Positions 11,001 through 52,082 of a DNA stretch of 64,000 nt are shown one piece after another (positions within the stretch are counted from its first letter, which is position 1; each line of letters begins with the position of its first letter). The notes beneath the pieces were generated by a model. The model was not told the origin of the DNA. It was given only the letters and a program-made list of their open reading frames with translations, and did no database searches. Source of the DNA: Ruditapes philippinarum (lineage: Eukaryota); NCBI RefSeq assembly GCF_026571515.1, contig NW_026862393.1, forward strand, positions 124,001 through 188,000. The letters run 5' to 3'. The translations under genes were made by a program, and so were the position numbers.

Positions 11001-12290
11001 AATAGATCACTTCCGGCGTTGCTAAACTATAAAATTATATCAAACCCAAAGATGACAGTAAGTGTTATATTTTTGATAGAACAAACAAAATATCAGGGAT
11101 AATACATGTGTAATAGTACACAATGTTAATAAGACTTATTCCCCTTCAATAATTTGAAACGTATGTTTCTCTGTAATTCTGATTTGACGGATTTAATGCT
11201 AAAGATACATATCAACTATATACATTGAGACACATATTAAAACGAGCATCCCGATATCTGATTTTATTTATGTTGTCTTGATGGAGTATCAATAATACAA
11301 ATAAATATTTAATAGAAAAATTGATCAAATGCAATAACAACGCAATTGTCTTACATCTGATTGATTGAAACTATCAAAATGTCATTCCATAGTTATATTG
11401 AATAACAAGCATAACTATTAACTTTGTGGACATTGAAGTATATTAATATAGCCGAGTAATGAAATTTGACTGAACGGTAAATCTTTTCTTTATGCCTCAA
11501 TATATGATAAAAATTAATGTGTACAATATTTCATGATAAATATCAATATTATCATTACTATTGCCACAGAACAGAAATAATGTTATTATAATAGCCATTT
11601 ATATTGATGCGTTTACGTTTAATACAAATCAATGAAAATTGTTCTCCTTTATTTTGTTAGGGAAACTTGTACAAAATATCTTGATATAATAACAATAAAA
11701 ACAAACAAACTTACAACGATAATATCGGGTGTAGGTAAAGTAAAGCTTTAATAAAAACAATCATTTCTAAAATATCTAAAAACGAAGCCTTAAAGAAAGC
11801 CAAGCAGGGCGACATTAAAAATGTTCAGGCTTGGTATGACTTTCACGCCCAATAGCACGGTTGAAATAAGAATACAATTTAACAATGTGAAACAAAATAA
11901 AATGAAATTCAGACAGGGGAGCAGGTTATGATGTTATTCAGACAATACTAAAACATAAATGTGTACATCACTTATAATTAATCATATCTCTTCATTTATT
12001 TTAAGTTTACAGTATGTTCTCATCGTTATATCTTTCATTACACACATATCAAATTGATTACCTTTGACAATATTGGGTGATCTGTCGGATGCATTGATGA
12101 ATCAAAGCACAGAAGGCGCTGAATTTGTTTGGGTCTCAGAATGTAAGAAAGGTGCAGGTTGTGAGATTATATGTATAGTGCCACCAATGCTTTCCAGCGT
12201 TTTAATTGTAGTAAATTGGCTATAAGACTAATTGCAACACTGATATTCAATCCAATGTTTATTTGACTTTAACAATTTGAAAAAAAATGA

Positions 12291-12365
12291 GTTACCTTTA
12301 CTGGGATTTGAACTCCAGACCTCTCGCTTCCTAAGCGAGCCCGAAAACCCTTCAGCCACGGTGAA
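12291..12365 (-). pseudogene. tRNA-Pro(AGG)-derived pseudo-tRNA / Pol III cassette
   Basis: On the minus strand: A-box TGGCTGAAGGG, anticodon arm CTCGC-TTAGGAA-GCGAG, B-box GAGTTCAAATCC, then a T8 run. The acceptor and T stems pair poorly. Confidence 0.7.
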
Positions 12366-12763
12366 TTTATATGTGAACAGGCTGAAGAAAACCATATTAT
12401 TCTAAATTAGGGCTTGTAACGACTTTAACTGTTGTTTAACACAGATGTAAATAATCCTAGAGCTTACTATAAGCATTTATATTTATAAAGAATCAAAGGG
12501 CTGCAAGTTCTGTGGTATTTTCTGATCTTTGCAATCTAAATCGTACTGTATATCTGTATGCATTTTCCTGTATAGGTTTATTTTTATGTATTATAATTCA
12601 TTTTGCAAGGCACCAGAGTTTGATACATACGGAATTCTGCATAACTAGAGTTGCATCAAAAAATCATTTATGTTCATTTTTTACGACAGTCACACTTTAT
12701 CTTGCATATCATGGCTACTTCTTTAACAAAAACACTTAAAAAAGAATTTAACAAAAAAAAAAG

Positions 12764-12835
12764 TTTCCTCGACTGGGATTCGAACTCGAGACCTCTCACT
12801 CACTAAGCGAGCGCGTTACCACTGTACCATGGAGA
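12764..12835 (-). pseudogene. Second tRNA-derived cassette, paralogue of 12291-12365
   Basis: On the minus strand: A-box TGGTACAGTGG, arm CTCGC-TTAGTGA-GTGAG, B-box GAGTTCGAATCC, then a T10 run. The flanks are homologous to the first copy over about 150 bp. Confidence 0.7.
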
Positions 12836-13910
12836 ATTATACACCGACATTTTGAATAATATCAAGTCATTCTAAATTTAGAACTTCCATTGCATTTCGG
12901 GTTTGTAATCCTTATTAATTTCGAGGTATTTTGTTCAGGGTAAACCTGTTGGTTAAAATTGAAGTAAATATTTTAGCATAAATCCTCTCGCCCAAACAGT
13001 CCGACATGTAGAATCTATATATTCCACTACTCGGTTTGTGTAGTATTCGGTAATAAATAGTATTTTCATTGATAAAATCATATTCATCCGCGTAATTTGT
13101 GATTGTGCATTTATCGACAATTCTATAAGCCAACGCTATTGCTTAACTTTAAATGCGATGTAATTTGTTGGATACTTGTAACAAAATAAAATATGACTTT
13201 CTTTTAAATCGCTAGTTTTAAGCTGTTTTGAGAACTACTTGTTGTTAGGTTTGTCGTAAACTTCTGTGTCAGAGATTGAATGTCCGCTTTGTATTTAGTT
13301 ATTTTCGATCAGAAAATACCATTAAACAATATTAGAAATCTTCGACCATTCGGGAATTGCTTTGCTTGAAAATTGATGCGCCTGTCTTTGACCATCTTTA
13401 CGCAGTGATCTCCCCTGAATTTTTCGGCTTTAGTGTACATACAAAAGGGAAGTAACCGCTTCAAAAAAGTGGACTACTTTCGGCATTTGCAATTAACAAC
13501 ATTAGACTCTGAAATTTCGCTACCATTATTTGTTTGGTCTGACGACCCAAACAAATAAAAAATCGTTTGTTGTGGCATAGATCGTTTTCAACATTTAGTT
13601 GATGGTGCAGTATCTCTCACATCGATTCAAACAAATATAGCTAGGACTTGTATTAAGACTTATGCTAAAATTACTTAAAATACGTTTGGCTACTTTAATT
13701 ATGTGTTAATATATCGCAACTAAGCTTTAAGTATAAATGAAATTGTTACAATAGCAAATCATGTAAATTTTTATTTGATCATAATATATTAAATACCTGT
13801 TTAATTTATAGATGTACTCAGATATATTATTAGATATACTAGTACCCAGTATTATCTATGCAGCTTGTTTTTTCTTTAAAAGATTAATTAGAAAATCTTT
13901 AATATAGCTA

Positions 13911-14940
13911 ACGTCAATGCAATACGTATACTGTATGATACTTCACTGAAGCCGTCACTTCAATGCGATACGTATACTGTATGATACTTCACTGAAGCCG
14001 TCACGTCAATGCGATATGTATACTGTATGATACGTTACTGAAGCCGTCACGTCAATGCGATATGTATACTGTATGATACTTCACTGAAGCCGTCACGTCA
14101 ATGCGATATGTTATACTGTATGATACTTCACTGAAGCCGTCACGTCAATGCGATATGTATACTGTATGATACTTCACTGAAGCCGTCACGTTCAATGCGA
14201 TATGTATACTGTATGATACTTCACTGAAGCCGTCACGTCAATGCGATATGTATACTGTATGATACTTCACTGAAGCCGTCACGTCAATCGCGATATGTAT
14301 ACTGTATGATACTTCACTGAAGCCGTCACGTCAATGCGATATGTATACTGTATGATACTTCACTGAAGCCGTCACGTCAATGCGATATGTATACTGTATG
14401 ATACGTTACTGAAGCCGTCACGTCAATGCGATACGTATACTGTATGATACTTCACTGAAGCCGTCACGTCAATGCGATATGTATACTGTATGATACTTCA
14501 CTGAAGCCGTCACGTCGATATGTATACTGTATGATACTTCACTGAAGCCGTCACGTCAATGCGATATGTATACTGTATGATACTTCACTGAAGCCGTCAC
14601 GTCAATGCGATATGTATACTGTATGATACTTCACTGAAGCCGTCACGTCAATGCGATATGTATACTGTACGTCACGTCAATGCGATATGTATACGTGCGA
14701 TATGTATACTGTATGATACTTCACTGAAGCCGTCACGTCAATGCGTATACTGTATGATACTTCATACGTATACTGTATGATACTTCACTGAAGCCGTCAC
14801 GTCAATGCGATATGTATACTGTATGATACTTCACTGAAGCCGTCACGTCAATGCGATATGTATACTGTATGATACTTCACTGAAGCCGTCACGTCAATGC
14901 GATACGTAATTCTGTATGATACTTCACTGATGCCGTCTCG
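13911..14940 (+). repeat. 46-bp minisatellite, about 22 near-identical units
   Basis: Unit ACGTCAATGCGATATGTATACTGTATGATACTTCACTGAAGCCGTC, head-to-tail with no spacers. A few units are internally deleted at about 14515 and 14670-14770. Confidence 0.97.
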
Positions 14941-15367
14941 TGAAATAACGGAGGTTCTGGGGAATACTGGTAATATACTTTATGTAAAATTACTTTTGTA
15001 AAAGGGAACGAGAAGAGACAAGTCCGTTATTTTCACATATTTATTATTGTAAAAACTATAACACTTTATATTTACAAAAAAAAACGTGATACACGCTTTA
15101 TTCTGATATGACAGAGTAATGTTACATTTGTTCATATTAATGAAAAATACCTACCGGCTATGTTTCATATAAAATGATAGTAGTTTTTCATATAAACAAT
15201 AGTGTTTCAACAATGCTGGTTTAATACAAATGAAAAGAATATATTATTATATTATTAAGAACATTATAAATATCAAATACATTGCTCTAGGTAAAAAACA
15301 ACATTTTTTTACATTGTACAATTGACTTTGATAAAAGAACTTGAAATTCATAACAAAGTACTAAAAG

Positions 15368-17216: not shown

Positions 17217-20200
17217 AGCATCTCAAATTGAATGACCTAATTTTAATCTATATCACTATGGATTGATTAAACTGCTTTACAATGGTAACATTACACGCTC
17301 TGGGGACATATTATTTCCGTACTGAAGTCATTTTAAATGTCGACAGTAATATTACCTGAACGTTGATTTCATATTGAATATTACACTTACAATTCATGGA
17401 AGAAACTTTAAAATATATCTGTTGTCATATATTCTCAAATCACGACCACTCATTGACTGCTATTCTTGCATGCATCTACTCACGCAGATAAACATTAACG
17501 GAGAGGAAATCATTAAAAGAATAAAAACAATTACAGACCACGCGCCATTGTTGCACTGTTTAAATATGCGCGACTAAGGGCGCCATGTGAAAATAGCTTT
17601 CTGCGATGACGGCTCCGTTAGTTGCATCAAAGTATAACGGTCAAATTACACCGCACTACCACGTGAAAATAGCAAGGAAACGTGTTTTCTTTTACGAAAA
17701 ACAAAAACAAAACAGGAACAAAGTAAAGCAAAAAAAACGAAACGCGGATTTACCGAATCAGTCGCTAATGCACCGTTTTCGTAAATTAAAATCTGCAGAA
17801 TTCCTAGACTCTTCATCTGAATAACCAAAACAGCGCGAGAGATTTCATTAAGGTAAAGGGCTTCTACAAATGTTAACGCAAGAAAAAAATGCACTAGTGT
17901 TATCCTGGCATAACAAATATACATTATAACGTGCGAGTGCAAAATACGTTTGGAAGGTTCTAACAAGAATTTCTTTAAAAACTAATATACACACTGATGC
18001 TAAGCTCTGTGTTAGATATATTTGATAGTATTAGTATTTACATAATCTGCTTTACGTTGTTGTTTTTTATTTGACTACAAATATGGATATCAAAATGATA
18101 TATGATTGGATACATTTCAAATGAAGCATCTCTAGATTTCAGACGCCTGCACGTTCCGCAAGTTCTACTTTCACAACATTGATGCATTTTTGTTTGTCAC
18201 ATTTTCAACGTTTGGGTAAATATAGGTCATGTAAAATTGCTGTTGTTAAAAGAAAATAAAACAAAAATCAATTTAACAATATCATGTTTTATTGCAGATA
18301 CAACTGCCCACACAATGTAAATACTGTAAGTAAAGCTAATTAAATATAAAATTGTGTACATAGTCATTTAGATATGAACGAGTAATGGGCATCAACAAAC
18401 ATGCCTTCATATTGAAACATAATAACCTTTTTCAATTGATTATAAAGAACGTCGATGCATAGTTTTATCATGTTTATGCAAGGCCTGCATAATTTCAAAA
18501 TAAGTTATTATAGTTACGTGTAAGTTAATGCTTCTTAGACATATAATAATGTATTTTAAAATAAACGGATTAAAAACGTGAAAAAGTAAGACTCCAAAGT
18601 TGATAAACATATTACAATTATGTTTAAAAGGCCCATTATGCCCAATAAATGCTTTTTTCTACTTTTCAAAGGGCTTTACTTTTGGGGTACATTTATCGTT
18701 TTCAAAAGGTTAATTACCTCAAAAATGCTTTGCCTCTGTTATCTTTTGGCATTTAGTAAAGTAATAGCGATTACAATTAGAGTCTTTTGTATAAAAGTAA
18801 ATATACTTCTTTGTTCATATTTTGTTTGCTACATTTATGACAAATCATTTAACATTTAGCACTACTTTCTTCAGGTAACAAGTATCCAACATTTCCAACA
18901 TGCTATGAACCCATTATCTAAACAGCATACAATTCTTGTTTGCCAATTTATTAAGGAAAAATTGATTCGAAAACGGTTTCTAATGCATAATTTTACCTTT
19001 ACATGAACCACCTAAGCTGAAAACTCTACAGGTGTATGATTTTGTACCTGATTTCTGATGAACTAATAAAAAATTTTTTAATTCATCACAAACTACTTAA
19101 AGTATCTAAAATAAAATGACGTAATGAATATCTATTTATGTCATTTAGGATTGATTAAATCTCTTTATGATGGAAACATTACATGCTCTGGGGACATATT
19201 AGTTCCGTACAGAAGTCGTATAAATGCCGCCTGATATATTAAACGACAATTGAGCGGATGTCATATTGATAACGTTGAAGTAACAGTTATTTAAGTAACA
19301 CACTTTAAAAAATAAATATCTGGTTGATACATGTAATCAATTAAACGTGCAACTTGTTCTTGGATTGCAATCAGTTGTATGTAACTGTTATTTTATTTTA
19401 ATATTATGTAAAATAAAAAACGAATATGTCTTTGACACCACTACGTAGAAATGATAGCACAGAGCCTTTTTAAAAGAAAGGTGAATATGTTGACGATACA
19501 AGTTTAAAAGATTTGTTCTGATTGTATCGGAAGGTCCATTATTGTCCATTATTGTCCCGAAAGTTGTATGTCATGTGACCATTGAAATAACTATAATACT
19601 TATACTGGAATTTTTTTAATCTTAATTCTCAAAAACGAATAAATAGAATTTAAATTTTAAAAAAGCAACAAAAAACAAAACAGAAGCAACACCCCCCCCC
19701 CCCCCCAAAAAAAAAAGTGCAAAAAATAAAACATCAACAACAAGCAAAAAAAAAACGTGATAAATAATTGTATTTGAAAGCTTATACTGTTGCTCATTAT
19801 AATAAGGAAAGTAGTTAATACCAGTGATAATACAAAGTTTTCCATTCTCATCAAAATACTTCCATTACACTTACCCTGATTTTTTTGAATCCGCCTTTCT
19901 CATTTTCAGTCTTAAGAATAGAAAATATTGTATTTTATATGCGATTTGAATTCCCATTTCAACAATAATGTACGATAAATAAAACATTTTGGAGTTCATA
20001 CAATTCTCTATAGTTTATTTATTTTATTACTGACGAAAACAAATGCGGAATTTAGGATCATAATGATTTCTTGAATGATAAAAGCTGTTGTTATAGGAAA
20101 TGTTTGGAGAGTATTTGTGAACGCACTAATGTAAATACCATATTCCATTGATGTTATTCTAATACATTTTTCTTTTTATTGAAATTTCGCTTCTAAATTA

Positions 20201-21885
20201 ATGTTCTACAGACATTGATCGTTACGGATGATAGCACTTGTGTTGAATCAACAACAGTTTAAGTAGCTGAAATTATGATTATAACAGATAAAAAATAACC
20301 GTCTTCTCAAAGAACGATTGCATTATAAAAATGTGAATAAAATCAAATTTGAATAAAAATGAACATATATTGTTTGTTTTGCCAACTCCGCACATGTACC
20401 GTCACTTCACCTTATTGAATATCATGCACGTTTATAATATATAACAACAGAAATTGCAGAAATTATTATTTTAGGAACAACAACTGAATTTTGACGTGCA
20501 AGCATTAAAACGCCATTACAAAGGACTTCTGTTTCTGTTTCTAACGTGTATATAACGTATCTAAATTACTTAAGTAGGAAAAGTTGAGGATCAAATTCGA
20601 AACCTCTAATTTTGTAGTCAAAAGGGTTTTTAATATAACTAGACCACTAGAATCTCTGGTTTTAGCAGTGTCTTTTATGTATTTTCTGTGTATTTTTGCT
20701 TTTGTGTGAATGACCAATTTGCAAATCTATATGCCTAACTACAGTACCTCTACATAGATCTTTAACAATGTCGAATATAACAGGAACTTATAATTATATG
20801 CATATTATGAAGTACTAGTATGAATATGACAAAAATAAGCGTTGTATCATTTTTCTAATATACCGGAGCAACAACGGCGCAGCTCCGACAGCCTTTGCTA
20901 GGCTCATTTGGCTCTTTATTTATATCCTTAAAGAAATACAAATAAAATATTGCCGACACATTGTCATATCTAAGAAAAATGAAAAATAACACCGGTTAGC
21001 TGTCAGTACATGAACTGAAATCGTTTTTGTTAAGTAGTTATGGTCCGTACTGTGTTGTTATCTTAACTTACATTATCTAAGACTATATTATTATAATGGT
21101 TAGTTTCACATTTTTCTAAAGTTAGTTTTCAAATATATTTAAACTGATTCTGACAAAACTTAATCATCACATGAACAATTTGCTTCTTTTCAATTATTGG
21201 TATTTAACACTATTTAAAACAGAAAACAAAATTATCTTAGTTTTTGGATACAAGAAACAGAAACAAACCAATAATGAAGTAGTTACGATAAAGATAAAGA
21301 TATTTAAAAAATAATTCGTTCAAGATTAGAACCTATTGAATTCATGCAAGTGTGTACCCTCTAGCACTGAAGCATTTAAAATGTTTTCACGTATCTTTGA
21401 TTGATTGTAATATCATGAGATTGTTATACCATAAATAAAACAAGTTTATCCTTTAGAAAATTATTACCTCCGTATTGAAGACATAGAAGTGCTTGCAATA
21501 TCTCCTTCAGTAAAATAATATACAATTGTATTACGTACTTCGGGAAATTGTGCTAAACAAACTATACAAGAAAAGATTCATGTAAAAGTCTTTATTATGA
21601 GCCATACGTTCTGCTGTCAACCCGACAGACACACACTAAATTTATATATTCTAATAATAAAACAGTGTAGATATTATTAAATAAAATGTGCACTTAAAAA
21701 TACTTAAGAAATGAAAATTTTACTAACGAGTTTGTTTGTATATTTTATTGGATAAACTGGAATATATTTTACTCAACAATACAGCACAACATCTCCACGC
21801 AATGTGTTTAGAATCAATAAATTAATTTTTCTTTGTTTCTTGTCAAAATAATCAAATATACGTATCAATATACCATTAAGATTTC

Positions 21886-24800
21886 TGAAGGTTCCATGAA
21901 AACCGTCGTATGAAAGTTCACCATTTTCTTGTTTAAATGTTGAAGTCTGCTTAAGTGGTTGCTTCGGGGCATGGACGGTAACTTGCACTTTTACCGTTTA
22001 TGAACAGGCGCACTGCAACATGTTTTTAGCGTTCTTTATGGATTCAGTTTTTTCTGTTTCTATACGAATAATATTTACACATTAGAATATTAACTCACAA
22101 CAAACAGACATTGAAATGAACAGGAATCAGCTAGAGGTAGATGCCACTTAAAAAAGATCATTGTTTAATGTTTATTTGTTTACTTTTTTATAGTTTGTAT
22201 ATGCAATAATGTTCAGAATTAAAAAGCTGTCTGTCAAGCAAATGGAACCTGTAAAGATCAGAACACATTTGTACTGCTATAGAATACTTTGAATTAACTC
22301 TGTTAAACTACGCTAAGGAAAAGTGGCCTACTTTTTGAATTCGTCTTTTGACAGTTTTTCTGTGATAATTATGCAGGCTTCATAACCTTTGATCCCCTTT
22401 CAAAATGAAATCTTAATTAGTTCCGCCCATTGTTTTTCTCGTTTTGGGTACACGCATATTTTACTGGGGTTCCATACGCCGCTTTTCATGGAATGGCACG
22501 AAAGTGTCATATTGAATAACCGCTGTATGAACAAATCAGCGGATGTTTCTAAATTCGAAATTTGACTTTTATTATCATTAAATGTTGAATTCTGCTTAAG
22601 CCGGTGCTAGGGGGCGTGGACGGTAACTTGCACATTCCATTTACGCCCATGACCAGGCTCAATCATACCGAGACTGCAAAATTTACTATTTTTAATGTTT
22701 CCCTAGCATACTCCTTAAGGTCGGAACAGAAGGAACTTTAGACTTAACAACTATAAGTTGTTATATTTTTCTGGTCCTTCGAAATAATTGATTCGAGCAC
22801 AAATTATGTTCTGCTAAAGCCGGTGCTAAGGGCGCGAAGGATGTTGCCCTCATGTACGTTTGTATCAACTGTATACTCGGTTGCTTCAATTAATGAAGTA
22901 TTTTCATTTTTTCCCAGATAAGCAGATTTCACTTCACGTGGCCTAAGTCGGATAGAATATTTCGTGGAGTTGTCTGTACGATATAGACAACCCCACGCGT
23001 TTTCTATTCTTTACTCATTTTATTTTGAATCAGTTTTATGGAGTCATAGATTTTTAATTCAATAAGTTTATTCACGCAACGTATGACAACCGGCTATTAC
23101 ATTTTATTGTAAAGAATACAACAATGGTCATTCAGTAACGGTCTATTTGTAATCGTCACCATTCATACTATACAACCCTGATAAAGTCTTTATATGCCAA
23201 TGTATTTGGATATTGTATGCTTAAACACTGAATACATGCTTATTATGTTCAGGTTGCCAGAGTTTTAAGTGTGCACATATTTGTTGTTATTGGATAACAT
23301 GTCAAACTACTCGAGTCAAACTTGTCTTTTTATCGACAAAATGGGGGTTTAAAGATTAAAGAGCATGATGTTTACATGTTCTACTTCTGTGAAGACACGT
23401 GACATTATCAGGTTATGACATTTCTCAGTCTTAAACTGATTCTTTTATGATCAAATGGTGAATACTTCCAGATGCTTCGAAACATTTTATATCCATCTTT
23501 TGAATATTTAAACTAATCATTCGTTGATAATCATCTATTAATTAATTTATCTTACTTAACACATTTTACGCGAAGTTACCTGGCTTTACACAGCGGACGA
23601 TTACACTACAGTTTTGGGTATAGCGCGGTTTCGATGCTGTGATTTACTTCAGGCTTCACAAATACAATACAAATAAACTCTGTTTCTTTTAAAAACAATA
23701 TAAAATGGTGTTAATAGTGATTAAAATTCAAACAACTATAAAAGTGTAGACTATTAAATTAGTTTCAGCCACCCAATATCCGAAAATGGAACATTCCAAG
23801 ACAAGAATTTATAGTCCTTTTCAAAAAAATAAATGGAGTAACACACTATCACTATTGTCAACCCCGTTAAGCAAACAATCTGTCACGTGACCTCACAAGG
23901 TATTTTTGTTTGTATTATTCGCTGTATGCTGCTTGTTATCATGGCTTGAGCTTAATAAAGTTTTTGTTGTTGTTGTTAAAACGAAATTTTAGTGCTTTTA
24001 AAAATCATTCTGAGGGAACTGATGAACGACAATCTTATTGTTAACTAATTTAGTAATAAGCTATAAATGTTAGGAGGCGTGGACGGTAGTTTGCACTTTA
24101 CTGTACCGTCAATAAACAGGCTCAATCAAATAGAGCCTGTAACATTTTCAATTTTGCCGTTTTGGACTTTCTTTAGGGATTCTTATTTTCTCTACTTTAA
24201 AACAAATTGAAACGCATTAGGTTTATGTAACTGCATTTCCTAACCTACTATAGCTACGTCAACTAATTGGTGATTGACAGACATCGGCTTTCGTGATAAC
24301 AATCTTTTGTTGAGATTATTACACATGTTAAAGGGTATTTCACTTAGTCAAGGAAAAGTTTTAACATGCATTATGCAGATATAAACGAACGGATAACTCA
24401 ACATTATAGTATTTGTATCATATCGAACGATAAATACAGATGTGCAAAGATAAGAAGAGTAAAACATAGTATTTTATTTCAGAAAAGTATCAATATTTTA
24501 AACTTTTATGTCTCAATTTTCTCGTTGTGTTTCAATTTGTAAAACGTTCATTCTGTTACTGAATGCACAAATCTAAAATTTGTAAAAGATTGCATCAACA
24601 CTATTTTATGTTTCCTTTAAAACGATCAATATCACTTTAATTTTGTAAACTATATGTTTTCCTGGAGAGGAAATTCATTGCCATGTGCGTGAACAAAACG
24701 ATTATCTACGTTTAGGGGGTTTAGATCTTATATATGAAATTGCTTTTGCGCTATTTTAAGCAGTCTTAATTATGAAATTATTTTTTATTTACCAAAATAT

Positions 24801-24995
24801 AGAAAACAGAATCCCTAAGAACGCCCAAAACGACAAAAATAAACATTTTGCAGGCTCGGTTTGGTTGAGCCTCTTCATGGGCAGTACTGGACAGTGTAAG
24901 TTACCGTCCTCACCCCCTAGCACCGGCTTAAGCAGAATTCAACATTTATACTTGAAAATGGTAAAATTGTGAATAATGAAATATCCGCGGCAGTA
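21886..24995. repeat. Cluster of foldback/MITE-like arms in unit 1
   Basis: Minus-oriented arms at 21886-22060, 22417-22700 and 24070-24195, and a plus arm at 24795-24995. Shared core GCAGGCTCGGTTTG.TTGAGCCT...CCCCTAGCACCGGCTTAAGCAGAATTCAACATTTA. Confidence 0.75.
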
Positions 24996-28488: not shown

Positions 28489-29676
28489 ACAAGTGCCGTC
28501 ACAGGAGACAGCCAAGCTCGACTAAAAAAATACTGGACGCAGTAAGGAGGACAAAACTATGAAAGAAAAATCAATTATGTATAATTATGTATCAAGTTAT
28601 AGTAAAAAAATAACATTTGTTAAAATAAATTCCAAGATCAAGGGAAATAATTCTAGAAATAGTCACGCTAGAGTTATGAACCTTGTCACACAACATGTAT
28701 GTAATGATAAGAAGTATATATTTGAAGTTTGAAGTAGATACCTTAAAAAGTAACAAAGTTATAATATTTCTTAAAGAGAATCCTAAGTTCAAAGAGAGAT
28801 AAATCTGTAATAATTACTTCAAAAGTTATGAACATTGTCACATAAAATATAATTGATTATAAGGAATAAGTATTTGAAGTTTGAGGTAGATACCTTTAAA
28901 ACTAAAAAAGTTATAGTAAAAAATAACATTTTTCTAGTAAAAAAATCTAAGTTGATGGGGAGATAATTCTTGCAATATTGGTGCTAGAGTTATGAACCTT
29001 GTCACATAAGATGTTGATGATGATAAGGTACATTTATTTGAAGTATGAAGTTGAACCCATTTAGAAATAAATAAGTTACAGTAAAAAATAATATTTTTTA
29101 AAGAAAATTCTAAGTTCAAAGGGAGATAAATCTGAAAATATTGGTGCTAGAGTAATGAACCTTGTCACATAAGATGGGGATGATGATAAGGTACATATAT
29201 TTGAAGTATGAGGTTGATCCCTTAAGAAATAAAGAAGTTACAGTAAAAAATAGTATTTTTTAAGGAAAATTCTAAGTAAGGGGAGATAAATCTGAAAATA
29301 TTGGTGCTAGAGTTATAAACCTTGTCACATAAGATGGGGATGATGATAAGGTACATATATTTGAAGTATGAGGTTGATCCCTTAAGAAAAAAAGAAGTAA
29401 CAGTAAAAATAGTATTTTTTAAGGAAAATTCTAAGTTCAAGGGAAGATAAATCTGAACATATTGGTGCTAGAGTTATGAACCTTGTCACATCAGATGTGG
29501 TTGATGATAAGGAACATATATTTGATGTTTGAAGTTGATACCTTAAGAAATGACAAAGTTATAGTGAAAAATATTTTACTGCACCAAAACTTTAATCTGA
29601 AATCTGGACGCGAACGCGGACGCCGACGCCGGGGCGAGTAGGACAGCTCTCCATATACTTCGTATAGTCGAGCTAA
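28489..29676 (-). mobile_element. Helentron-associated non-autonomous element (HINE/DINE-like) with about 6 x 160-bp core repeats
   Basis: subTIRs AGCTCGACTA (28515-28524) and TAGTCGAGCT (29665-29674), a terminal stem-loop, and a GACGCC/GACGCG microsatellite near the 5' end. Core period is about 160 bp (29120, 29280, 29440). It is inserted in an A-run with no TSD relative to the empty sites at 11311 and 38101. Confidence 0.9.
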
Positions 29677-31474: not shown

Positions 31475-31984
31475 ATTTGTTTGTTTGTTTGGATTGTTAC
31501 TGCACGTCAGCACACAACTGGCCATATCGTGCCGAATGCTATAATAGGCTTAAAATGTTATGTAATGCTTTGTAAATGACAAAAAAGTGAGTCAATTAGA
31601 TCCTAGAGTACAAGTTTATCTCTTTCAAATAATCAATAATTTTTTTTGATGGAATTGTATTAAATAGTTCTTTGAGTGAGTTTACACGATAAAATCTATT
31701 ACGGGCCTGTGAAAAAATATGACATTCAAGCAGAAAATGTTTGACAGTAAAAATTTTATTACAAGCTTCACAGAAAGGGGCATTGTCATTCGTAAAGAGG
31801 TAAGAGTGGGTAATTTTAGTGTGTCCAATTCGGCATCGAAGAAGAACTATTTGATCATGGAGAGTTGACAGAGATAGAGATGGTGACATATGAAGATATG
31901 GGTTTATATCGTTATGTTTATTAAAAACGGCATTGTTCCAATTTGCTTTCCATTCAGATGATATGAGTTTGTTTATAGCCGGTC
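31475..31984 (-). mobile_element. 5'-truncated non-LTR retrotransposon, I/Nimb-like clade
   Basis: 10-bp TSD AAATTGATTC (31465-31474 and 31985-31994) and a (CAAA)n tail. Absent from units 1 and 3. Confidence 0.9.
31596..31982 (-). pseudogene. LINE ORF2 C-terminal fragment with CCHC zinc knuckle
   Basis: Open frame PAINKLISSEWKANWNNAVFNKHNDINP...LLRCRIGHTKITHSYLF...PFCEACNKIFTVKHFLLEC...IIDYLKEINLYSRI*. The RxRIGH and CxxC-x7-H-x4-C motifs are typical of the post-RNase H region of I-group LINEs. The frame extends upstream of the Met in the ORF track. Confidence 0.9.
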
Positions 31985-34763: not shown

Positions 34764-36165
34764 TGAAGGTTCCATGAAAATCGACGAATGAAAGTATTTG
34801 AGGAAACCTCAAAATTTCACCATTTTCGTGTTTAAATGTTGAATTCTGCTTAAGGGGACCGTTTATGAATAGGCGCACTCAAACCGAGCCTGCAACATAT
34901 TCAATTTTGTCGTTTTGAGCGTTAGGGATTCCATGTTTTCTGTTTTTTATCTAATAATATTTAGACATTAAAATGTTAACAAACAACACACAGATATGGA
35001 AATGTACAGGAATCAGCTGGAGGTAGATGTCACTTAAAAAAGATCTTTACTTAATGTTTATATGTTTACTTTTCTTATAGTTTGTATATGCAATAATGTC
35101 AAGAATTAAAATGCATATGGAACCTGTAAAGATCAGGAACCATTTGCACTGCCATAGAACAGTTTGAATTAACACTGTAAAACTACCCTTGGGAAAAGTG
35201 GCCTACTTTTTAAATTCGTCTTTTGACAGTTTTTCTGTGATATGCAGGCTTAATAATCTTTGATCCCCTTTCAAAATGAAATTTTAATTAGTTCAATTTG
35301 TCATAGTCACAATATTTTCACATTTTTTTATTTTATGTTACCACTGAAAACTTGATATTACACAATACACACATTGTGTGTTTTGCCGTGCTCATATTTT
35401 TCGTACTGTACAACCCTGATAAAGGCATTATATGCCGAATGTGTTTGGACATTTTGTACTTAAAACACTGAAACACACTGCAAAAGTGTATTTCCTTGAT
35501 CAAGGAAACGTTTTAACATGCATGCAACATTCTATTGATGCAGATATAACGAACGGATAACTCACATCATCAGTATTTGTATCATATCAAATGATAAATA
35601 CAGGTGTGCAAAGATAAGAAGAGTAAAACATTAAGAATCTTGATACAGTATTTCATTTTCAGAAAAGTATCAATATTTTAAACTTTTATGTCTCATAATG
35701 TTCTCGTTGTATTTCAATTTATAAAAAGTTCATTCTGTTACTGAGATATAATTTAGACTGCACAAAGCTAAAATTTGTAAAAGATTGCATCTACACTATT
35801 TTATGTTTCCTTTATAACGATCAATATCACTTTAAATTAATTTTGTAAACTATGTTTTCCTGGAGAGGCAATTCATTGCCAAGTGCGTAAATAAAAAGAT
35901 TATCTACGTTTAGCGGGTTAATATTTTATATATGAAATTGCTTTTGTGCTATTTTCAGCATTGTTTATTATTCTTATTAAACAAAATATAGAAAACAGAA
36001 TCCCTAAAGAACGCCCAAAATGACAAAAAATAAACATTTTGCAGGCTCAGTTTGGTTGAGCCTGTTCATGGACAGTACTGGAGACCACACCCCCTGCACC
36101 GGCTAAAGCAGAATTCAACATTTATACTTGAAAATATATAGACCACAGACGTGTTCATACGCCGG
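34764..36165. repeat. Inverted pair of foldback arms in unit 2
   Basis: A minus arm at 34764-34950 and a plus arm at 35983-36165 enclose about 1 kb. Confidence 0.75.
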
Positions 36166-37911: not shown

Positions 37912-40900
37912 TAATGTTAATAAGACTTATTCCCCTTTAATAATTTGAAACGTATGTTTCTCTGTAATTCTGATTTGACGGATTTAATGCTAAAGATACA
38001 TATCAACTATATACATTGAGACGCATGTTAAAACGAGCATCCCGATGTCTGATTTTATTTATGTTGTCTTGATGGAGTATCAATAATACAAATAAATATT
38101 TAATAGAAAAAAATGATCAAATGCAATAACAACGCAATTGTCTTACATCTGATTGATTGAAACTATCAAAATGTCATTCCATAGTTATATTGAATAACAA
38201 GCATAACTATTACCTTTGTGGAAATTGAAGTATATTAATATAGCCGAGTAATGAAATTTGACTGAACGGTAAATCTTTTCTTTATGCCTCAATAGATGAT
38301 AAAAAAGTAATCTATACAATATATCATGATAAATATCTATATTATCATTACTATTGGCACAGAACAGAAATAATGTTATTATAATAGCCATTTATATTGA
38401 TGCGTTTACGTTTAATACAAATCAATGAAAATTGTTCTCCTTTATTTTGTTAGGGTTGTACAAAATATCTTAATATTTAAACAAACAAACAAACATCAAA
38501 TTTTATCCATCACGATAACCTTGTGTGTTGATGTAAATTAAAGCTTAATTTAAAACTTTATATTTACAAAAATAGTTTGATAATGCTTAATCTGGACATG
38601 ACAGAGTAATGTTACATTTGTTCATATTGATGAAAGATACCAATTTTAAGCAAATCCAGACAATGTTTAATACATGATACATGTAGTAGTTGTACATGTA
38701 AACAATAGTGTTTCAACAATGCTGATAGCATACAAATGAAAAGAATATATAATTAAGAACATTTTAAATATCAAATACATTGCTCAAGGTAAAAACACTT
38801 TTCACGTTTGTACAACTGACTTTGAGAAGCAAAAAATTTTAAATTCATAACAAAGTACTAAAAGCATCTGAAATTGAATGACGACATTTTAATCTTTCTA
38901 TATCACTACGGATTGATTTAACTTCATTACGATGGAAACGTTACACGCTCTAGGGGCACTTAAGTCATTTAAATGTCGATAGTAATATTACCTGAACGTT
39001 AAGTGGATTTCGTATTGAATATTACATTTACCATAAATGTAAGAAACTTGGAAATGTGTTGGTCAAGTCGTTATCATATATTCTCAAATCACGACCACTC
39101 ATCGACTGCTATTCTAGCATGAATCAGCCCACGCATATATACGTTAACGGAGATGAATTTATTATAAGAATAAAAAATATACACGAGACCACGCGCCTTT
39201 GTTGCACTGTTTAATTATGCATAGCTTTCTACGATGACGTTCCGTTAGTGGCATCAAAATATAACGGTCAAATTATACCACACTACCACACAAAAATAGG
39301 AAGGAAACGGTTTTCTTTTACGAAAAAAAAAAAAAAAAAAACAAGAACAAAAAAGACCCCTTTTCTCGCATTATGCAGAGGCACAACAGTGCGAGAAATT
39401 TTATTAAGACAAGGGCTTCTATAGATGTAAATGTAAGAAAAACGTGCTGGCATAAATATATACGTTATAACGTGCGAGTGCAAAATACGTTAATTGTGGT
39501 AAATGATTTTGTATTGCAGCTGAAAAATAAAGTACAGTACGTTTGGAAAGTTCTACAAATCTATGAAAACAAGAATAACTGTAAAAACTAATATACACCC
39601 TGATACTAAGCTCTGTGTTAAATGTATTTGATAGTATTTACATCATTTGCTTTACCTTGTTGTTTTTTTTATTTGACTACAAATATTGATATAAAAATGA
39701 TATATGATTTGATACATTTCAAATGAAGCATAAATGAATATTTCCTCTAGATTTCAGACGCCTGTACGTTCCGCAAGTTCTACTTTCACATCATTGATGC
39801 ATTTTTGTTTGTCACATTTTCAACGATTGGATAAATATACGTCATGTAAAATTGCTTTTGTTAAAAGGAAATAAAACAAACACATGTCTATCAATTAAAC
39901 AATATTATGTTTCGTTGCAGATACATCCGCCTACAAGATAAGTAAAGCTATTTAAATATAAAATAGTGTATAAAGTCACTTAGATATGAACGAGTAATGG
40001 GCATCAACATACATGCCTTCATATTGAAATATAGTAACCTTTTTCAATGAATGATAAAAGAACGTCGATGCATAGTTTTATCATGTTTATGCAAGGCCTG
40101 TATAATTTCAAAATAAGTAATTATAGTTACGTGTAAGTTAATGCTTCTTCGACATATTATGTATTTTAAAATAAACGGATTAAAAACGTGAATAGATAAG
40201 TTGATAATCATATTATAATGTAGTAAAGGCCCATTATGCCCAAGAAATGCTTTTATTTCTACTTTTCAAAGGACTTTACTTTTAGGGTACTTAAAAGTTT
40301 TCAAAAGGTTAATTGCTTCAAAAAAATTATTTGCCCCTGTTATCTTTTGGCATTTAGTACAGTCATAGAATTTGTTATTAGAGTATTCTGCATAAAAGTC
40401 AAAATACTACTTTGTTCCACAATTTATAACAAATTATTTCACATTTAGGGCTACTTGCGTCAGGTAACAAGTATCATTTCCAACGAACTAAGAACCCATT
40501 GTTTAAATAATATAAAAATCATGTGTGTCCGTTCTAAAGAAGTAATTTAAAAGTTAATTCGTTTCTGAGGCATAATGTACCTTAAACCACTACATCTAAC
40601 AGTCCTACAGGTGTATGATTTAATATTTGATTTCTAATAAACTGATACAAAATGAAATTCATCACAAAGTACTTGAAGTTTCTAAAATAAAATGACGTAA
40701 TGAATATCTATTTATGTCATTTTGGATTGATTAAATCTCTTTATGATGGGAACATTACATGCTCTGGGGACATATTAGTTCCGTACAGAAGTCGTATAAA
40801 TGCCGCCTGATATATTAAACGACAATTGAGCGGATGTCATATTGATAACGGTAAAGTAACAGTTATTTAAGTAACACACTTTAAAAAATAAACATCTGGT

Positions 40901-43603
40901 TGACACATGTAATCAATTAAACGTGCAACTTGTTCTTGGATTGCAAGCAGGTGTATGTAACTGTTATTTTTCTTATAATATTATGTAAAATAAAACGAAT
41001 ATGCCTTTGACACCACCACACGGAAGGTGAAATATGTTGACCATAGAAGTTTTATTCTGATTGTATCGGAAGGGAAGGTCCATTAATGTACCAAAAGTTG
41101 TATGTACTGTTTTAATAAACTAGCCATTGAAATACCTAAAAATATCATACTGAAAATGTTTGAATCTTTAATCACAAAAACAAATGAATGAAATTAAAAA
41201 TAAAAAGAAAACAAGAACAAAAACAAAATAACACCCCCAAGCAAACAAAACAAAAACGTATTTGAAAGCTTATACTATATAAAAAGTAGTTGGTGATGAT
41301 CAAAATAGTTCCAACACTTACCCTGATATATTTAAACCTGTCTTTCTCATTTAGGATAGAAAATTGTTATGATTGCAAATTGAATTGTAATAAAACGTTT
41401 TTGCATATAATGTACATTAAATAAAACATTTTGGAGTTCACTCAATTCTCTATAGTTTATTTATTTTATTACTGACGAAAACAAATGCGGAATTTAGGAT
41501 CATAATGATTTCTTGAATGATAAAAGCTGTTGTTATAGGAAATATTTGGATAGTATTTGTGAACGCACTAATGTAAAGACCATATTCCATTGCTGTTATT
41601 CTAATATATATTTGTTTTTAATGAAATTTCGCTTCCAAATTATGTTTTACAGACATTGATCGTTACGGATGATAGCACTTGTGTTGAATCAACAACAGTT
41701 TAAGTAGCTGAAATTACGATTATAATGGATAAAGAATAACCGTATCTTCAAAGTACGCGTGCTTTATAAGAATGTGAATAAAATGAAATATGAATCAAAA
41801 CTGATATAATTTCTTTAACCTATGTATACACTGCACGTTTACCATCACTTCACCTTATATTACGTACGTGTATATGATATACGTGTTGTTTGATCGATTT
41901 CTTAACAAATAAACGTGTATTCTAACGCATACTAGTAACAGTTTGATGTTGTAACTATGTCCTTATCTACCTTATAGATAATAATCGTATTGTAGTACTT
42001 ACAGTGTTCGACACGAATCGATCAGTAAAGTATCAATGTGCAGTTAAAACAAACCAAAAAACAAATGAATGTCGCGACTTATGCATGACACATTCATAAA
42101 AACTGTTCAAAATGTTTTTTCGAAGCCAACGAATTCGAACAATTATTACATTATAAGATTTATAGGATGACTGGATTTTGACGTGCAAGCGTGACAGCGC
42201 CGTTACAAGGAACTTTGGTATGAAAGCCATTTTGTACCAGGATTTATCTAGTCTAGAGATGAAATTGAAAACTCATTAGTTGCTCGTAATTTACTGAAAT
42301 GGATGTTTATCTTTGTTCCATTTCAACACCAAAGTATTTGAAGTTTCGCCCAATGTGCTTTTCAAATAAAAAGAAATGTAGAACCAGCAAAAAATGTAGG
42401 CGTCGGAAATCTGTTGAAATATATATTTATCTTGCTTCGGAGGAGAATTCATCCGTCAAAGTAACAGCTAAATCATGTACCGATTTTCTCAGTGATTGTC
42501 ATACAGTATGGTCAAATTGATATTCAATATTTCATCTGGAGTTTGAATGCTTTCACACATACACACTGTTGGTGTTTGTAAGTCAGCGAATATGTCATTC
42601 ACGTTAAATCTATTTTTACAACTCGCTTTGACAAGGATATGTAAATAAAAGGAAACAAAAATATGCACGTTTAATGATGATGGTGGTAGTCAATGTGTTT
42701 TCTTTTTTGTATTATTTTAAGTATAAAATCCAGCTTGCAATGCGTATAAGTATTTGAATGCAATACGTGAGATCATAAAACTACGTAAGCCTGTTAGCTG
42801 ACAGTAATTCGTTTTTGTTAAGTAGTTATGTTCCGTACAGTGTTTATTTAAGACTATATATAATGGTACGTACTTAGTTTTCAAATATTCTTAAACTGAT
42901 TATGAACGATACTAAATCTTCACATAAGCAAATTTGCTTCTTTTCTTTTATTAGTATTTAACACTATTTAAAACATAAAACAAAATAAGCGTAGTTTTGG
43001 ATACAGGAAACAGAAATAAACAAATAATGAAGTTGTTAAGATCAAAATAAAGATATTTCAGAAATAATTCGTTCATGGTTAGAACAATATTGCATTCATG
43101 CAAGTGAAGCATTTAAAATGTAAAATTAGGTAGAACATGAACGTTTTGTCGTCTCTTTGATTGCTTATTTTATTATAAATAAAACAAGTTTATCCTTTAG
43201 AAACTTATTACCTCTGTAATGAAGACATATCCGTAATAATGCAATATCTCCTTCAGTAAAATAATATATTACGTTCTTTGGGAAAATGCACTAAAGAAAG
43301 TATACAAAAAGGACTCATGTAAATGAATGTATTTAAGGAGTTATGAGCCATACGTTTGACTGTTAACAGGCACACAAAGCGGATATTTATTTATAATATA
43401 CTTTCTATAATAAAACAATGTATTATTAGATAATATCAAATACAATATGCACTTAAAAACATTTAAGAAATGAACATTTTACTTACGAAATTTTTAGGAT
43501 AAACTGAAATATATTTTACTCAACAATACAAAGCGTCAATCAATTACATTATGTTTCATGTTAATCATTATCAAATATGCGTGTCAATATAACACCAAAG
43601 TTG

Positions 43604-46000
43604 TGAAGGTTCCATGATAACCACCATGTGAACACATCTGCGGAGTTTTCTAAATTCAAAATTTCAGCATTTTTTGTCTTAAAATAGGTGGTAACTTTCA
43701 CTTTTCATTACCGTTTATGAACAGGTTCAATCAAACCGAGCCTGCAAAATGTTAAATTTTGTCGTTTTTTGGGCGTTCTTTAGGGATTCCGTTTTTTTTC
43801 TGTTTCTACTCGTATTCTAAAATTAATTACACATTAAAATGTCAACGAAAAACAAACAGGCATGGAAATATACGGCATGAAAATGTACAGGAATCAACTT
43901 GAGGTAGATGTCACTCAAAAAAAGATCATTATATAGTTGCTTTTCTTATAATTTGTATTTGCAATAATGTCAATAACTTAAAAGCTATCTGACAAGCATA
44001 TGAAACCTGTAAAGATCAGAAATCATTTATACTGAATATAATACTATAAAATAAATAAAATAAAAATCCCTGAAGAATGTCCAGAACGGCAAAATTGAAA
44101 ATGTTGCAGGCTCGGTTTGATTGAGCCTGTTAATGGACGGTACTGTCAAGTGCAAACTACCATCCTCGCCCCATAGCACCGGTTTAAGCAGAATTCAACA
44201 TTTAAACATGAAATGGCAAAATTTTGAATTTAGAAACATCCGCAGATGTGTTCATTCGGCGGTCATCATGGAACCTTCCATGTGACACATTAGTGCCATT
44301 CCATGAAAAGCGGCGTATGGTCCCAAAATAATAGAAAGCGTGTGCCCTAAGCGAGAAAACAATGGGCGGAACTAAACAAAATGGAATTGAATTAAAGGTC
44401 ATACTTTGTGAACTGATAAACAACTTACATGTTCTAATAAGCTATGAATGTTTTAAGAAAATTGAAGTGCATTTGGTTTATGAAACTGCATTTCCTTTCC
44501 TACTTTAGTTACGTCAACTAATTGATGATTGACTGACATCGGCGTTCGTGATAACAATCCTTTATTGAGATTATAACATGTAAAAGGGTGTTTCACTTAG
44601 TCAAGGAAACGTTTTAACATGCATGCAACGTTCTATTTATGCAGATATTAATAATTGTTCTCGGTTCTTTCTAGTTTTTACCTTGTAGTATTAAGAAGTC
44701 TTTGGTATAAATAATTCTCGTTTTTCGCGGCTTAACTGTTCTTTCGTGGTTTGCCACCATACAAGTAACATTACTTTGGTTCAGGTTATTTAAAGATGAT
44801 TTTAAATTAAATCATTATAACGCAAAACATGCTTTTATACGCGAAACGAATTGATACCATGATGTTTCTTATTACTTCTGATGATATATGAGATGATATA
44901 AAACAAACATGGTCATACATGTATTCTCCATCACCATAAATATGATATCAATTTAATTTATATTTGATTTTTTATTATTATTATTATATCCTAATCTTTT
45001 TAGTATACATATTTGATAGTAGTCACAACTGTATGTTCGTTCGTTCGTTCGTAAGTATAAACAAGTGTGATTGTTGCTTCGTGTTGCAATTAAACTGTCA
45101 ATTATCTCAAGTATTTTTATAATTTTGTTGATCGAAAATTTGTCTTTGAAGATATATTTTGTCTTTATAACATGATAAAATACTTTATTACCCATGTTTT
45201 GTTATGAGATAATGCTTGACAACTGTAAAATAATATAAAGAGTCGAACCGCCTTCTAGCCCGATATAGTCTCTGTTTTTCCTAGTTAAGTATTGCAAAGT
45301 ATAACAAATAATTGTTTTATATCCGGACGAACGTAAGTGAGGGAGAAAATAAAAACGGATAACTCGATCTCTGTATCAGATCATCATAAGTTTATGGATC
45401 ATATCAAATGGTCAATAAAGGTGTTCAGTGAAACGTTATGAGTTTTGATACAGTATTTCATTTTCAGAAAAGTATCAATATTTTAAACTTTTTATGTCTC
45501 ATAATTTTCTCGTTGTATTTCAATTTGTAAAATGTTCGTTTTTTTACCGAGATATAATTTAGACTGCACAAATCTGATCTTTATAAAAAATGTAAAAGAT
45601 TGCATTAACACTATTTTATGCTTCATTTATAAAGATCAATATGACTTTAATTTTGTAAATCGGATGTTTCCCTGGAGAGAAATACATTGGCATGTTCGTG
45701 AACAAAAAGATTATCTACGTTTAGGGGGTTAATATCTTATATATTAAATTGCTTTTGTGCTCTTTTCAGCATTCTTTATCATGATATTATTTCATTTCTA
45801 ATTTAACAAAATAGAGAAAACAGAATCCCTAAAGAACACCTAAAACGGCAAAAAATGTAAATGATGCAGGCTCATTTTGGATAAGCCTGTTCATGGACGG
45901 TAATTGACGATGCAAGTGACCGGCTTAAGCAGAACATTAAAATGGTAAAATTTTGAATTAAGAAATATCCGCAGATCTGTTCATACGCCGGTATTGTGAA
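43604..46000. repeat. Cluster of foldback arms in unit 3
   Basis: Minus arm at 43604-43808, plus arms at 44065-44375 and 45808-46000. Confidence 0.75.
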
Positions 46001-49700: not shown

Positions 49701-50079
49701 GTTATCAACCTTGTATCTTTATGTCTTTTAAACTGTTTTACTTCGCCCGATAAGACTGCAATATTCTATGGAAAAACAATAAATTTAATTTATAGAGATA
49801 TATTTATATATAAAATTTTAATATCTTGACAGAAACAAATTTCTGCTGCAAAATACGCAAAAACATGAAAGTATAAATATTAATCATATCTTTTTGTAAA
49901 AAATTTACTTTATATATCAACTGATCTTAACTAATAAAATCAATAATTTACTCCATCTGATTTCATCAAAATCTAGCTATCAAGCTGAAGAAAATGTTTA
50001 TCAGAAAAAGTCACTCATCTCATAACTTCAGTTTGCTTGTTTTTGTTTAGAAACGCACTCTCATGAAATAATTGCTATT

Positions 50080-50280
50080 TGAGCCGCGTCACGACAAAAC
50101 CAACATAATGGGTTTGCGACCAGCATGGATCGAGACCAGCCTGTGCATCCGCGCAGTCTGATCAGGATCCATGCTGTTCGCTATCAGTTATTCTACTTGT
50201 TAAAGGGTTTGTAAGCGAACAGATTGGATCTGGCAGTTACTGTCGCAACATTTGTTAGAGTTATGCATAGGCGCGCTCAT
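50080..50280. mobile_element. MITE (palindromic, TIR begins TGAGCCGCGTCACGACAAAACCAACATAATG); right end garbled
   Basis: Internal subrepeats CAGCATGGATC / GGATCCATGCTG. The left 70 bp is nearly the reverse complement of 54121-54189. Confidence 0.8.
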
Positions 50281-50927
50281 TTGTACTGCATTGACGAATG
50301 AAAGATAATACATTATCTCAAACTTACAGGGCTACAGCTTCATATTGTTTTTGTTCCTTTGTTTTAGGCTGTTTCTTTTAACAGTGTAAATTTGTAGTTT
50401 AGACACACATGCAATTGCAAAATAAACAATGGTTACAGCATAAATGCCCTGAAACTTATTTTTGAAAAGTAATTGTTAACAGGACAAAAATTACCACTTT
50501 CATATCACGTTATATATTTTTATATATTTTCTGTCTTTCTTAATAAGACTAGCGGTGGTTTTTTTTTGCCCGGGAGCGGAATGGGTCGTATTACTTGAGG
50601 CGTGTTTAGTCTTGAGGGGGTATGCAATTCCTGTTGAACCATTCCTTGTCGACATTATAACGTATGCCTTATATACAGATGTTTATTTGAAAGCACCAAT
50701 ACAATCGACATGTAGCAGCAAATGAAAGGAACACATTATCAGCTCGATTGCAAAAACGCATTAAGTTATTTATTGATACGTATTTAATTTCAGCAGCCAA
50801 CAAAACAAATGCGTTAAAAAGGACGATTTTCCCCAGTAAAGTAATCTTCAAGACAGATTAAAATGATTCAGCTGAGACTACTTTCAGATAAATTTGAAAA
50901 TGTTAAACGGATTTATTGTAGAGCTAA

Positions 50928-51222
50928 GGTATAAAATATCCCCCTTGTGGTATAAAATATCCCCCTTGTGGTTGAGGGGTCGCCTTAAAGGATTGAGGCA
51001 TCAGAATTGCAGCCACCGTTTATACCTGCGTGATTGTAAGAGGCGACTAAACTGATTCCAATTACTGGAGTCTGTGCATCTTAAAGCTCCAGCAGGTGAG
51101 GTGGCTTTGATCCCCGTAGTTGCTTTTAAGTCTGCAACACCCGAGGTTAGCCAAAATCATTTTTCCTGTTTCGGCGAAATATGACTTATATTGTGTTGGT
51201 GCGCCATAAAACTAAACTAAAT
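50928..51222 (+). mobile_element. 5'-truncated SINE, family B (Meta-domain-like)
   Basis: Central CCACCGTTTATACCTGCGTGATTGTAAGAGGCGACTAA resembles the MetaSINE conserved domain (from recall). Tail TTCGGCGAAATATGACTTATATTGTGTTGGTGCGCCATAAAACTAAACTAAA. A 21-bp tandem duplication sits at its 5' end. Confidence 0.75.
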
Positions 51223-52082
51223 GTACACAATATTAATTTAACACACATGCCTACTTGTTTATCATATGATGAGGTACCTCAAAGTCATGTTACCACAAGA
51301 AAATTATAACAGAGCCATATGTTTGGACCATTGGTAATATAAAGTTTAGCGTATCTCTACAAATCGTTTAATAATATTTTGTTATGAATATTGATTACTA
51401 AGCAGAAATGGTTACAGCAAAAATGCCCCTGGAGCCTTGATTTTTGAAAAGAATTGTTAAACAGGACAACAAATTACCACTTTCATATCAGCGTTTATAT
51501 ATTCTCTTATATATTATCTTGTCTTTCTAATAAGGGGTAGGTGGTGTTGCCCGGGAGGGATGGGTGGTATTATCTTTGAGGGGCGTGTGGTTGTCTTGGA
51601 GGGGGCGTATGCCATTCCCTTGTTGACCATTCCTATCATTCTGAATTCTGCTTTTACAGATGCTCGCGGATGTAAAAGATTTCACATCCCAGTCTCTCTC
51701 ATGAAAAAATAAAAACCGATTCTGTGAAATTTAACTACATATTTTTTTCGTATCTGATTAAGCTCATATTGCACTCGAGGGGACTCTTTTTTTCCAAGAT
51801 TGTTCGACATTATAGCGTATGCCTTATATACAGATTTTCAATTGAAAGTACCAATACAATCGTTATGTAGCAGCAAATGAAAGGAACACATTATCAGCTC
51901 GATTGCAAAAACGCATTTAGTTATTTATTGATACGTATTTAATTTCAGCAGCCAACAAAACAAATGCGTTAAAAAGGACGATTTTCCCCAGTAAAGTAAT
52001 CTTCAAGACAGATTAAAATGATTCAGCTGAGACTACTTTCAGATAAATTTGAAAATGTTTAACGGATTTATTGTAGAGCTAA

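Follow-up and report, generated by a model that had tools for sequence, protein, structure and literature searches.

Rolling-circle elements capture fragments of protein genes and tandem repeats. The described elements closest to the insertion analyzed here are HINE / DINE-1 (PMC4067079) and the oyster Cg_HINE (PMC7492417), which, in the available portions of these papers, are non-coding, high-copy elements with a 5′ subTIR, a fold-back repeat and a distal subTIR that enter T-rich targets without clear duplication; according to the same portion of PMC4067079, it is the Rep-helicases of Helentrons that mobilize HINEs in trans. The insertion found in the window (the whole 64-kb stretch of AT-rich DNA that was analyzed) shares this layout, target, copy number and lack of coding sequence, but a tRNA-derived cassette is present instead of the microsatellite or 140–180-bp tandem array reported in those portions. 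It probably represents two related HINE families, each with one captured tRNA-Pro(AGG) remnant, one copy being nested in the other at this locus. The subTIRs (13 bp in the outer and 15 bp in the inner element) fall inside the range of 11–15 bp and are asymmetric. The distal subTIR lies 22–23 nt from the end, as compared with 38–60 bp in the mite HINEs treated in the portion of PMC4067079 available, and the 3′ stem-loop is weak in the copies at this locus. No matches to the subTIR motifs were found in two supplement files on Cg_HINE (PMC7492417).

Other systems invite comparison through their tRNA-like content. As far as PMC10886601 is available, Helenus / Cassandra TRIMp3 are likewise non-SINE mobile elements that keep tRNA-like A and B boxes, show isotype mismatch and inflate tRNA gene predictions; they are LTR retroelements that need a Pol III transcript as template, whereas the carrier here is a DNA element without PBS, PPT or 4-bp duplication, and with the terminator directly behind the tRNA. 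Bivalve tRNA SINEs (PMC11481361, in part) also contain tRNA-derived A and B boxes and reach thousands of copies, but here the tRNA part is internal, and conserved body, LINE tail and duplication are missing. Capture of tRNA genes by a rolling-circle element was proposed for an Arabidopsis tRNA-Cys cluster overlapping annotated Helitrons, which three Helitron finders did not confirm (passages of PMC10701932); there the genes are intact and grouped locally in tandem, whereas the copies described here are dispersed, with ends and an empty site shown. The pearl / DTC84 elements of bivalves have an architecture of HINE type as well, and the portion of PMC3879986 available states that A and B boxes of Pol III were not found complete in them. 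Within the literature covered, to which subscription papers mostly do not belong, no established tRNA-carrying HINE was found, and none is established in passages of PMC6934838 or of the main text of bioRxiv 10.64898/2026.02.10.705023; Repbase, Dfam and the supplements of the bioRxiv paper may hold such families. The motif had 0 matches in 12 of the 33 supplement files of PMC10294476, and the remaining files may hold families.

To delimit the insertion (Table 1), reads and contigs were compared with positions 11770–13870 at 80% likeness in four of 24 listed runs, each from a different study: contig sets X1 (kind unrecorded), X8 and X13 (both guessed to be DNA), and RNA run X23 (150-nt paired library). 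The filled or empty state of the site was readable in X1 and X8, not in X13. Three contigs (record 1 of X1, records 16 and 17 of X8) join 12098/12099 directly to 13557, indicating that the insertion is 1457 bp long, is missing from those haplotypes and is located at a T-run. Assignment of the TT to the 5′ end gives the equivalent limits 12102–13558. The initial annotation had placed the limits at 12101 and 13561, within 1–5 nt of the empty-site ends, and had named insertion into a T-run without target-site duplication as a point to check, which holds at this one locus: the three empty-site contigs show no duplication longer than a possible TT.

Depth inside the element (bins of 4.6e4–2.9e6) exceeded that of the unique flanks (bins of 10–160) by ratios of about 1,500–37,000, of the order of 10^4, which are not copy numbers; each of the two elements has thousands of copies. 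Loose ends leading into unrelated flanks piled up at 12100 (124 and 117 contigs and 86 RNA reads; agreement 0.40–0.47) and at 13561 (34 RNA reads). Combined, depth, diverse flanks and empty-site contigs bear out the earlier assignment to a HINE-type mobile element, which is interspersed, high-copy and polymorphic. None of the 11 open reading frames of at least 100 amino acids overlaps the element, which is thus non-coding. No second copy was found in the 64-kb window, and exact-pattern scans of metagenomes, GTDB genomes and viral contigs gave no match. The longest listed contig piece internal to the element measures 233 nt and none spans it whole, so that co-occurrence of ends and cassette is read from depth and junctions. 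In X13, the flank 11770–12082 differs at 22 of 313 nt, and depth inside the element is distributed differently from X1 and X8, suggesting a diverged population, or a related species labelled alike.

It is hardly credible that the element is no rolling-circle HINE but a MITE moved by cut-and-paste and flanked by a TT or AT duplication. At the empty site an element-borne TT is indistinguishable from a duplicated one, and the weak 3′ stem-loop would also suit a MITE; but an equal T ambiguity is described for Helentrons in the portion of PMC4067079 at hand, the inverted repeats are asymmetric (0–2 nt from the 5′ end, 22–23 nt from the 3′ end), fold-back occurs at the 5′ end only, and two further HINEs in the window show the same layout.

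Table 1. Features of the composite insertion (positions in the window)
Feature	Position	Strand	Evidence or remark
Whole composite insertion	12100–13556	-	1457 bp; empty-site contigs, depth step, loose ends at 12100
T6 run at 5′ junction (target site)	13557–13562	-	Up to 2 T may be the element's
Outer 5′ subTIR, 13 bp	13544–13556	-	Perfect pair with 12123–12135
Outer inverted repeat, 12 bp, folds on 5′ subTIR	13526–13537	-	z -3.23
Outer element 5′ body	13324–13525	-	Joint 12494 to 13324 in 4/4 runs
Outer 3′ subTIR, 13 bp	12123–12135	-	23 nt from 3′ end
Outer 3′ stem-loop, weak	12106–12120	-	5 bp including a G-T pair; z 0.15
Inner HINE-like element, ~830 bp, nested in same orientation	12491–13323	-	Loose ends at 12491; 829-nt skip
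Inner 5′ subTIR, 15 bp	13307–13321	-	Perfect pair with 12513–12527
Inner inverted repeat, 7-bp stem with subTIR	13300–13306	-	DNA fold -4.9 kcal/mol, without shuffle control
Inner 3′ subTIR, 15 bp	12513–12527	-	22 nt from inner 3′ end
Inner 3′ tip	12491–12498	-	8 nt identical to outer tip 12100–12107
Cassette A, tRNA-Pro-derived, loop AGG	12293–12362	-	A box 12348–12358; B box 12305–12313; Rfam 17.3 bits
Internal T4 of cassette A	12344–12347	-	Between A box and B box
T8 run behind cassette A	12280–12287	-	Pattern match
9-nt motif upstream of cassette A	12400–12408	-	Identical in cassette B
Cassette B, tRNA-Pro-derived, loop AGT	12765–12836	-	A box 12819–12829; B box 12777–12785; ARAGORN, Rfam 24.6 bits
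T10 run behind cassette B, Pol III terminator-like	12753–12762	-	Pattern match
9-nt motif upstream of cassette B	12870–12878	-	Identical in cassette A

The ends of the outer element were examined against shuffled sequences. Its fold-back was equalled in 2 of 200 shuffles, whereas the distal stem-loop was no better than chance (100 of 200 as good). The 13-bp inverted pair by itself appeared in 17 of 300 shuffles, so the element ends rest on the read data. Of the HINE-type ends previously proposed, the T-run, the 13-bp subTIR pair and the 5′ fold-back stood, and the distal stem-loop is weak in this copy. These ends had also been described as copying those of two neighbouring elements; the layout is indeed common to them, but the sequence is not shared, and the perfect subTIRs of the neighbours, 15 and 46 kb away, are of 10 bp. 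One neighbour, at 28490–29675 (minus strand), is a HINE with a 160-bp array; its insertion into an A/T run is indicated by paralogous sites that are empty, one near 11317 and one near 38115. The other, at 59364–60960 (minus strand), has a 166-bp array of 7.6 copies, a strong 5′ hairpin with z -6.06 and a 3′ stem-loop with z -2.69. Such arrays within HINE ends, together with the label mollusc metagenome on three of the listed runs, suggest that the host is a mollusc, probably a bivalve. No tandem repeat was found inside the element under study, in keeping with the earlier observation that its interior is not a 160–170-bp satellite.

The initial annotation, in which the nested element was overlooked, read the insertion as one element with a two-cassette cargo. 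Read data did not sustain this reading. A joint of 12494 to 13324, skipping 829 nt, was found in all four runs (7, 7 and 5 contigs; 25 RNA reads), and at 13320 the form without the inner piece accounted for 88% (X1), 96% (X8) and 84% (X13) of depth. The usual outer form, some 630 bp long, accordingly carries cassette A only. At 12491, loose ends running into unrelated DNA (X1, 124 contigs; X13, 110 contigs; agreement 0.39) mark the left edge of the inner element, which micro-homology spreads over 12491–12495. Both elements consist of a subTIR, an inverted repeat and a distal subTIR 22–23 nt from an end with the same 8-nt tip, although the inner 3′ stem-loop does not fold in the copy at the locus, a single copy and not a family consensus. 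Homology between the two was found only in the cassettes and the 8-nt tip; outside the cassettes, alignments of outer with inner sequence were insignificant (equalled by 36, 180 and 80 of 200 shuffles). The dominance of the inner-less allele and the inner piece's own ends indicate that the cassette pair is a product of nesting, each family contributing one cassette. In RNA run X23, 78 and 69 reads at 12489–12579 have one uniform flank per side and come from one expressed locus in which the inner 3′ end is present.

The same data were weighed against a single long ancestor in which the cassette had been duplicated; the 630-bp form would then have lost internal sequence, and 12491 would serve as an alternative 3′ end in combination with the outer 5′ end. 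Coverage of the outer 5′ part in X13 (37,000x) approximates the sum of the outer 3′ part (15,700x) and the inner piece (23,600x), as a common 5′ end would predict; in X1 and X8 the outer 5′ depth does not equal that sum. The identical 3′ tips and a micro-homology of 2–3 nt at the junction also agree with a deletion, as does the lack of a loose-end pile near 13323, the 5′ end of the inner piece, among the 24 loose-end rows listed of 1946, where the outer 5′ end of the DNA runs is likewise unlisted. Against it, one limit of the skip falls within 2–4 nt of the inner 5′ subTIR and the other at the inner 3′ tip, a matching 15-bp subTIR pair, reached in 1 of 300 shuffles, belongs to the inner piece itself, the window-type allele at 13320 makes up just 4–16% of depth, and the two units show no alignment beyond the cassettes. 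This alternative is therefore unlikely, and nesting of two elements is the preferred reading.

As had been annotated, the two cassettes are homologous, co-oriented and about 470 bp apart, each with an A box, a paired anticodon arm (loops AGG and AGT), a B box and an oligo-T run. They align over 139 nt with 72.7% identity (E 1e-13) at an offset of 470–472. Tandem duplication of a 470-bp unit was considered as their origin and rejected, given the lack of alignment between units beyond the cassettes. The A and B boxes were assigned by box patterns; the order A box, B box, oligo-T of a type 2 Pol III transcription unit is present in both, with the extra T4 before the B box in cassette A, and the combined pattern of A box, B box and T-run occurs in two places on both strands of the 64 kb, namely the two cassettes. 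Anticodon stems are paired 5/5 in both, acceptor stems 6/7 in B and 5/7 in A (the highest value among three registers) with changes in both strands of the stem, T stems 3/5 in the cassettes and the D stem of B 2/4. Minimum-energy RNA folds were not better than those of shuffles (z 0.47 and -0.81). A perfect 14-bp palindrome at 12870–12883 contains the upstream motif of cassette B about 35–47 nt before the tRNA, presumably where TFIIIB would sit. Joints of 12325 to 12805 and 12757 to 12300 were also observed, yielding cassettes in part like A and in part like B, one with a different anticodon loop; these suggest further subfamilies or recombinants.

To trace the origin of the cassettes, a pattern derived from cassette A and built toward tRNA-Pro was used, which retrieved at least 117 metagenome loci. 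ARAGORN called tRNA-Pro(AGG) in 115 of 122 cases on these loci; since the pattern was built toward Pro, this shows close likeness and not an equal contest among isotypes. Cassette B is identical to the commonest tRNA-Pro(AGG) core at 49 of 72 positions, and over the 47 columns from the anticodon stem onward A and B match the commonest Pro core at 35 and 36, respectively. Over the same columns the cassettes agree with each other at 39, and seven changes from Pro are common to both, indicating descent from one already altered copy. By these comparisons, both cassettes derive from one altered tRNA-Pro(AGG) gene. The tRNA-Thr identity given by ARAGORN to cassette B was rejected, the core being Pro-like and the call reflecting a mutated anticodon. 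Homology between A and B reaches about 45 nt upstream of the tRNA, with 29 of 48 positions identical in register as against 13–19 of 48 at five other offsets. Genuine Pro genes mostly have a T4 2–9 nt behind the gene, and the T-runs of the cassettes start 2 and 5 nt behind. Upstream homology and T-run spacing would be more readily explained by uptake of a genomic gene at the DNA level than by retroposition.

Two retroelement origins were evaluated on these grounds. That the cassettes are heads of tRNA SINEs, or tailless tRNA retrocopies, which inserted into the elements and ride along is improbable. Frequent tRNA SINEs in bivalves (PMC11481361, as far as available) and derived changes common to A and B, as within one SINE family, are in its favor, and an ancient SINE origin of the cassettes may be considered. 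However, oligo-T stands directly behind the tRNA without body, tail, CCA or duplication, the homology extends upstream of the tRNA, there is no depth excess over the cassettes and no pile with diverse flanks at a cassette edge among the 24 rows listed of 1946, and the motif had 0 matches in eight supplement files of PMC11481361. The internal position, the T8 and T10 directly behind and the location of the unit ends elsewhere uphold the earlier distinction from a SINE. A derivation from Helenus, with the two cassettes as the LTRs of one TRIM or each as a decayed solo LTR, is very improbable. The portion of PMC10886601 available reports tRNA-like LTRs in 51 bivalve families, seven of them called tRNA-Thr, and a TG lies upstream of each cassette, with ends one base off the usual LTR end. 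But B is not followed by a TGG primer-binding site, CA end and 4-bp duplication are missing, the sequence before A is pyrimidine-rich and not purine-rich, the cassettes are just 73% alike and separated by an element end, and the shared anticodon-arm motif had 0 matches in the supplement of PMC10886601. Capture as DNA is retained as the preferred origin.

The state of the cassettes bears on their possible role. Rfam scores fall below the gathering threshold of 29 bits, the T stems and the D stem of B are eroded, the anticodon differs among A, B and the third variant found in a joint, and B combines a Pro-like body with a Thr anticodon; to judge from these features, the cassettes do not appear to work as tRNA. 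In X23, 908 reads in both orientations were recovered, of which 65% continue into unlike sequence, with no start or end piles in this 150-nt library, which is blind to 85-nt RNAs; the reads are element copies within longer transcripts. Pointing to retained function are both boxes, the terminator and the paired anticodon and acceptor stems, seen in three sequences only. Against it stand the T4 between the boxes of A and the coverage of cassette B, the lowest of the inner element (1,500–8,100x versus 14,000–24,000x), which implies that many inner copies lack cassette B or carry a diverged version. The element bodies lost detectable homology while the boxes, the anticodon stem, the two-sided acceptor changes and the 9-nt motif survived, a hint of a selected Pol III unit. 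That the cassette is kept under selection, rather than hitchhiking, is conceivable but doubtful. Equally tentative is the idea of a rolling-circle lineage that would keep a self-terminating Pol III unit under selection, whether because occupancy by TFIIIC / Pol III would leave the donor accessible or protected from silencing, or for an RNA of about 85 nt acting on the element.

The data establish that the insertion is mobile, high-copy and located in a T-run, and they fix its ends; an outer form without the inner piece, derivation from tRNA-Pro and shared ancestry of the two cassettes are likewise established. The structure, probably sister HINE families with a tRNA-Pro-derived cargo nested at this locus, is well supported. 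An ancestral element would have acquired a genomic tRNA gene as DNA, with 5′ flank and terminator and no RNA step. The families would then have diverged in subTIR and body, both being presumably copied in trans by a Helentron Rep-helicase through rolling-circle transposition, which needs no RNA, and an inner copy would have inserted into an outer one. The cassette would no longer yield a working tRNA and probably still binds TFIIIC in some copies. A tRNA gene remnant, carried by two high-copy rolling-circle families with mapped ends and an empty allele, is an unusual cargo. Such copies can inflate tRNA gene counts, yield false isotypes (as with the Thr call of ARAGORN for B) or pass as SINEs. 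With active boxes, insertions that are polymorphic would relocate TFIIIC sites across the genome, a movement directly testable with filled versus empty alleles; and were a selected Pol III unit to prove true, the families would be a DNA-transposon counterpart of TRIMp3, seeding thousands of polymorphic TFIIIC sites.

The remainder of the window is also rich in repeats. A 46-bp minisatellite of about 22 copies (13911–14941) lies 350 bp from the element. Between 17.2 and 47.6 kb, several kilobase blocks are repeated at 70–86% identity (e.g. 17962–20443 with 39568–41881), which would make this region a diverged tandem segmental duplication. The segments 22579–24972, 34809–36124, 43605–44278 and 50079–54190 are flanked by long inverted repeats, and are MITE-like or inverted copies of one repeat. 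A 128-aa frame at 31596–31982 (minus strand) had no Pfam match, and we take it to resemble the C terminus of a protein from a non-LTR retrotransposon. A fragment of a reverse transcriptase (Pfam RVT_1, E 4e-8) is encoded at 58725–59036 (plus strand).
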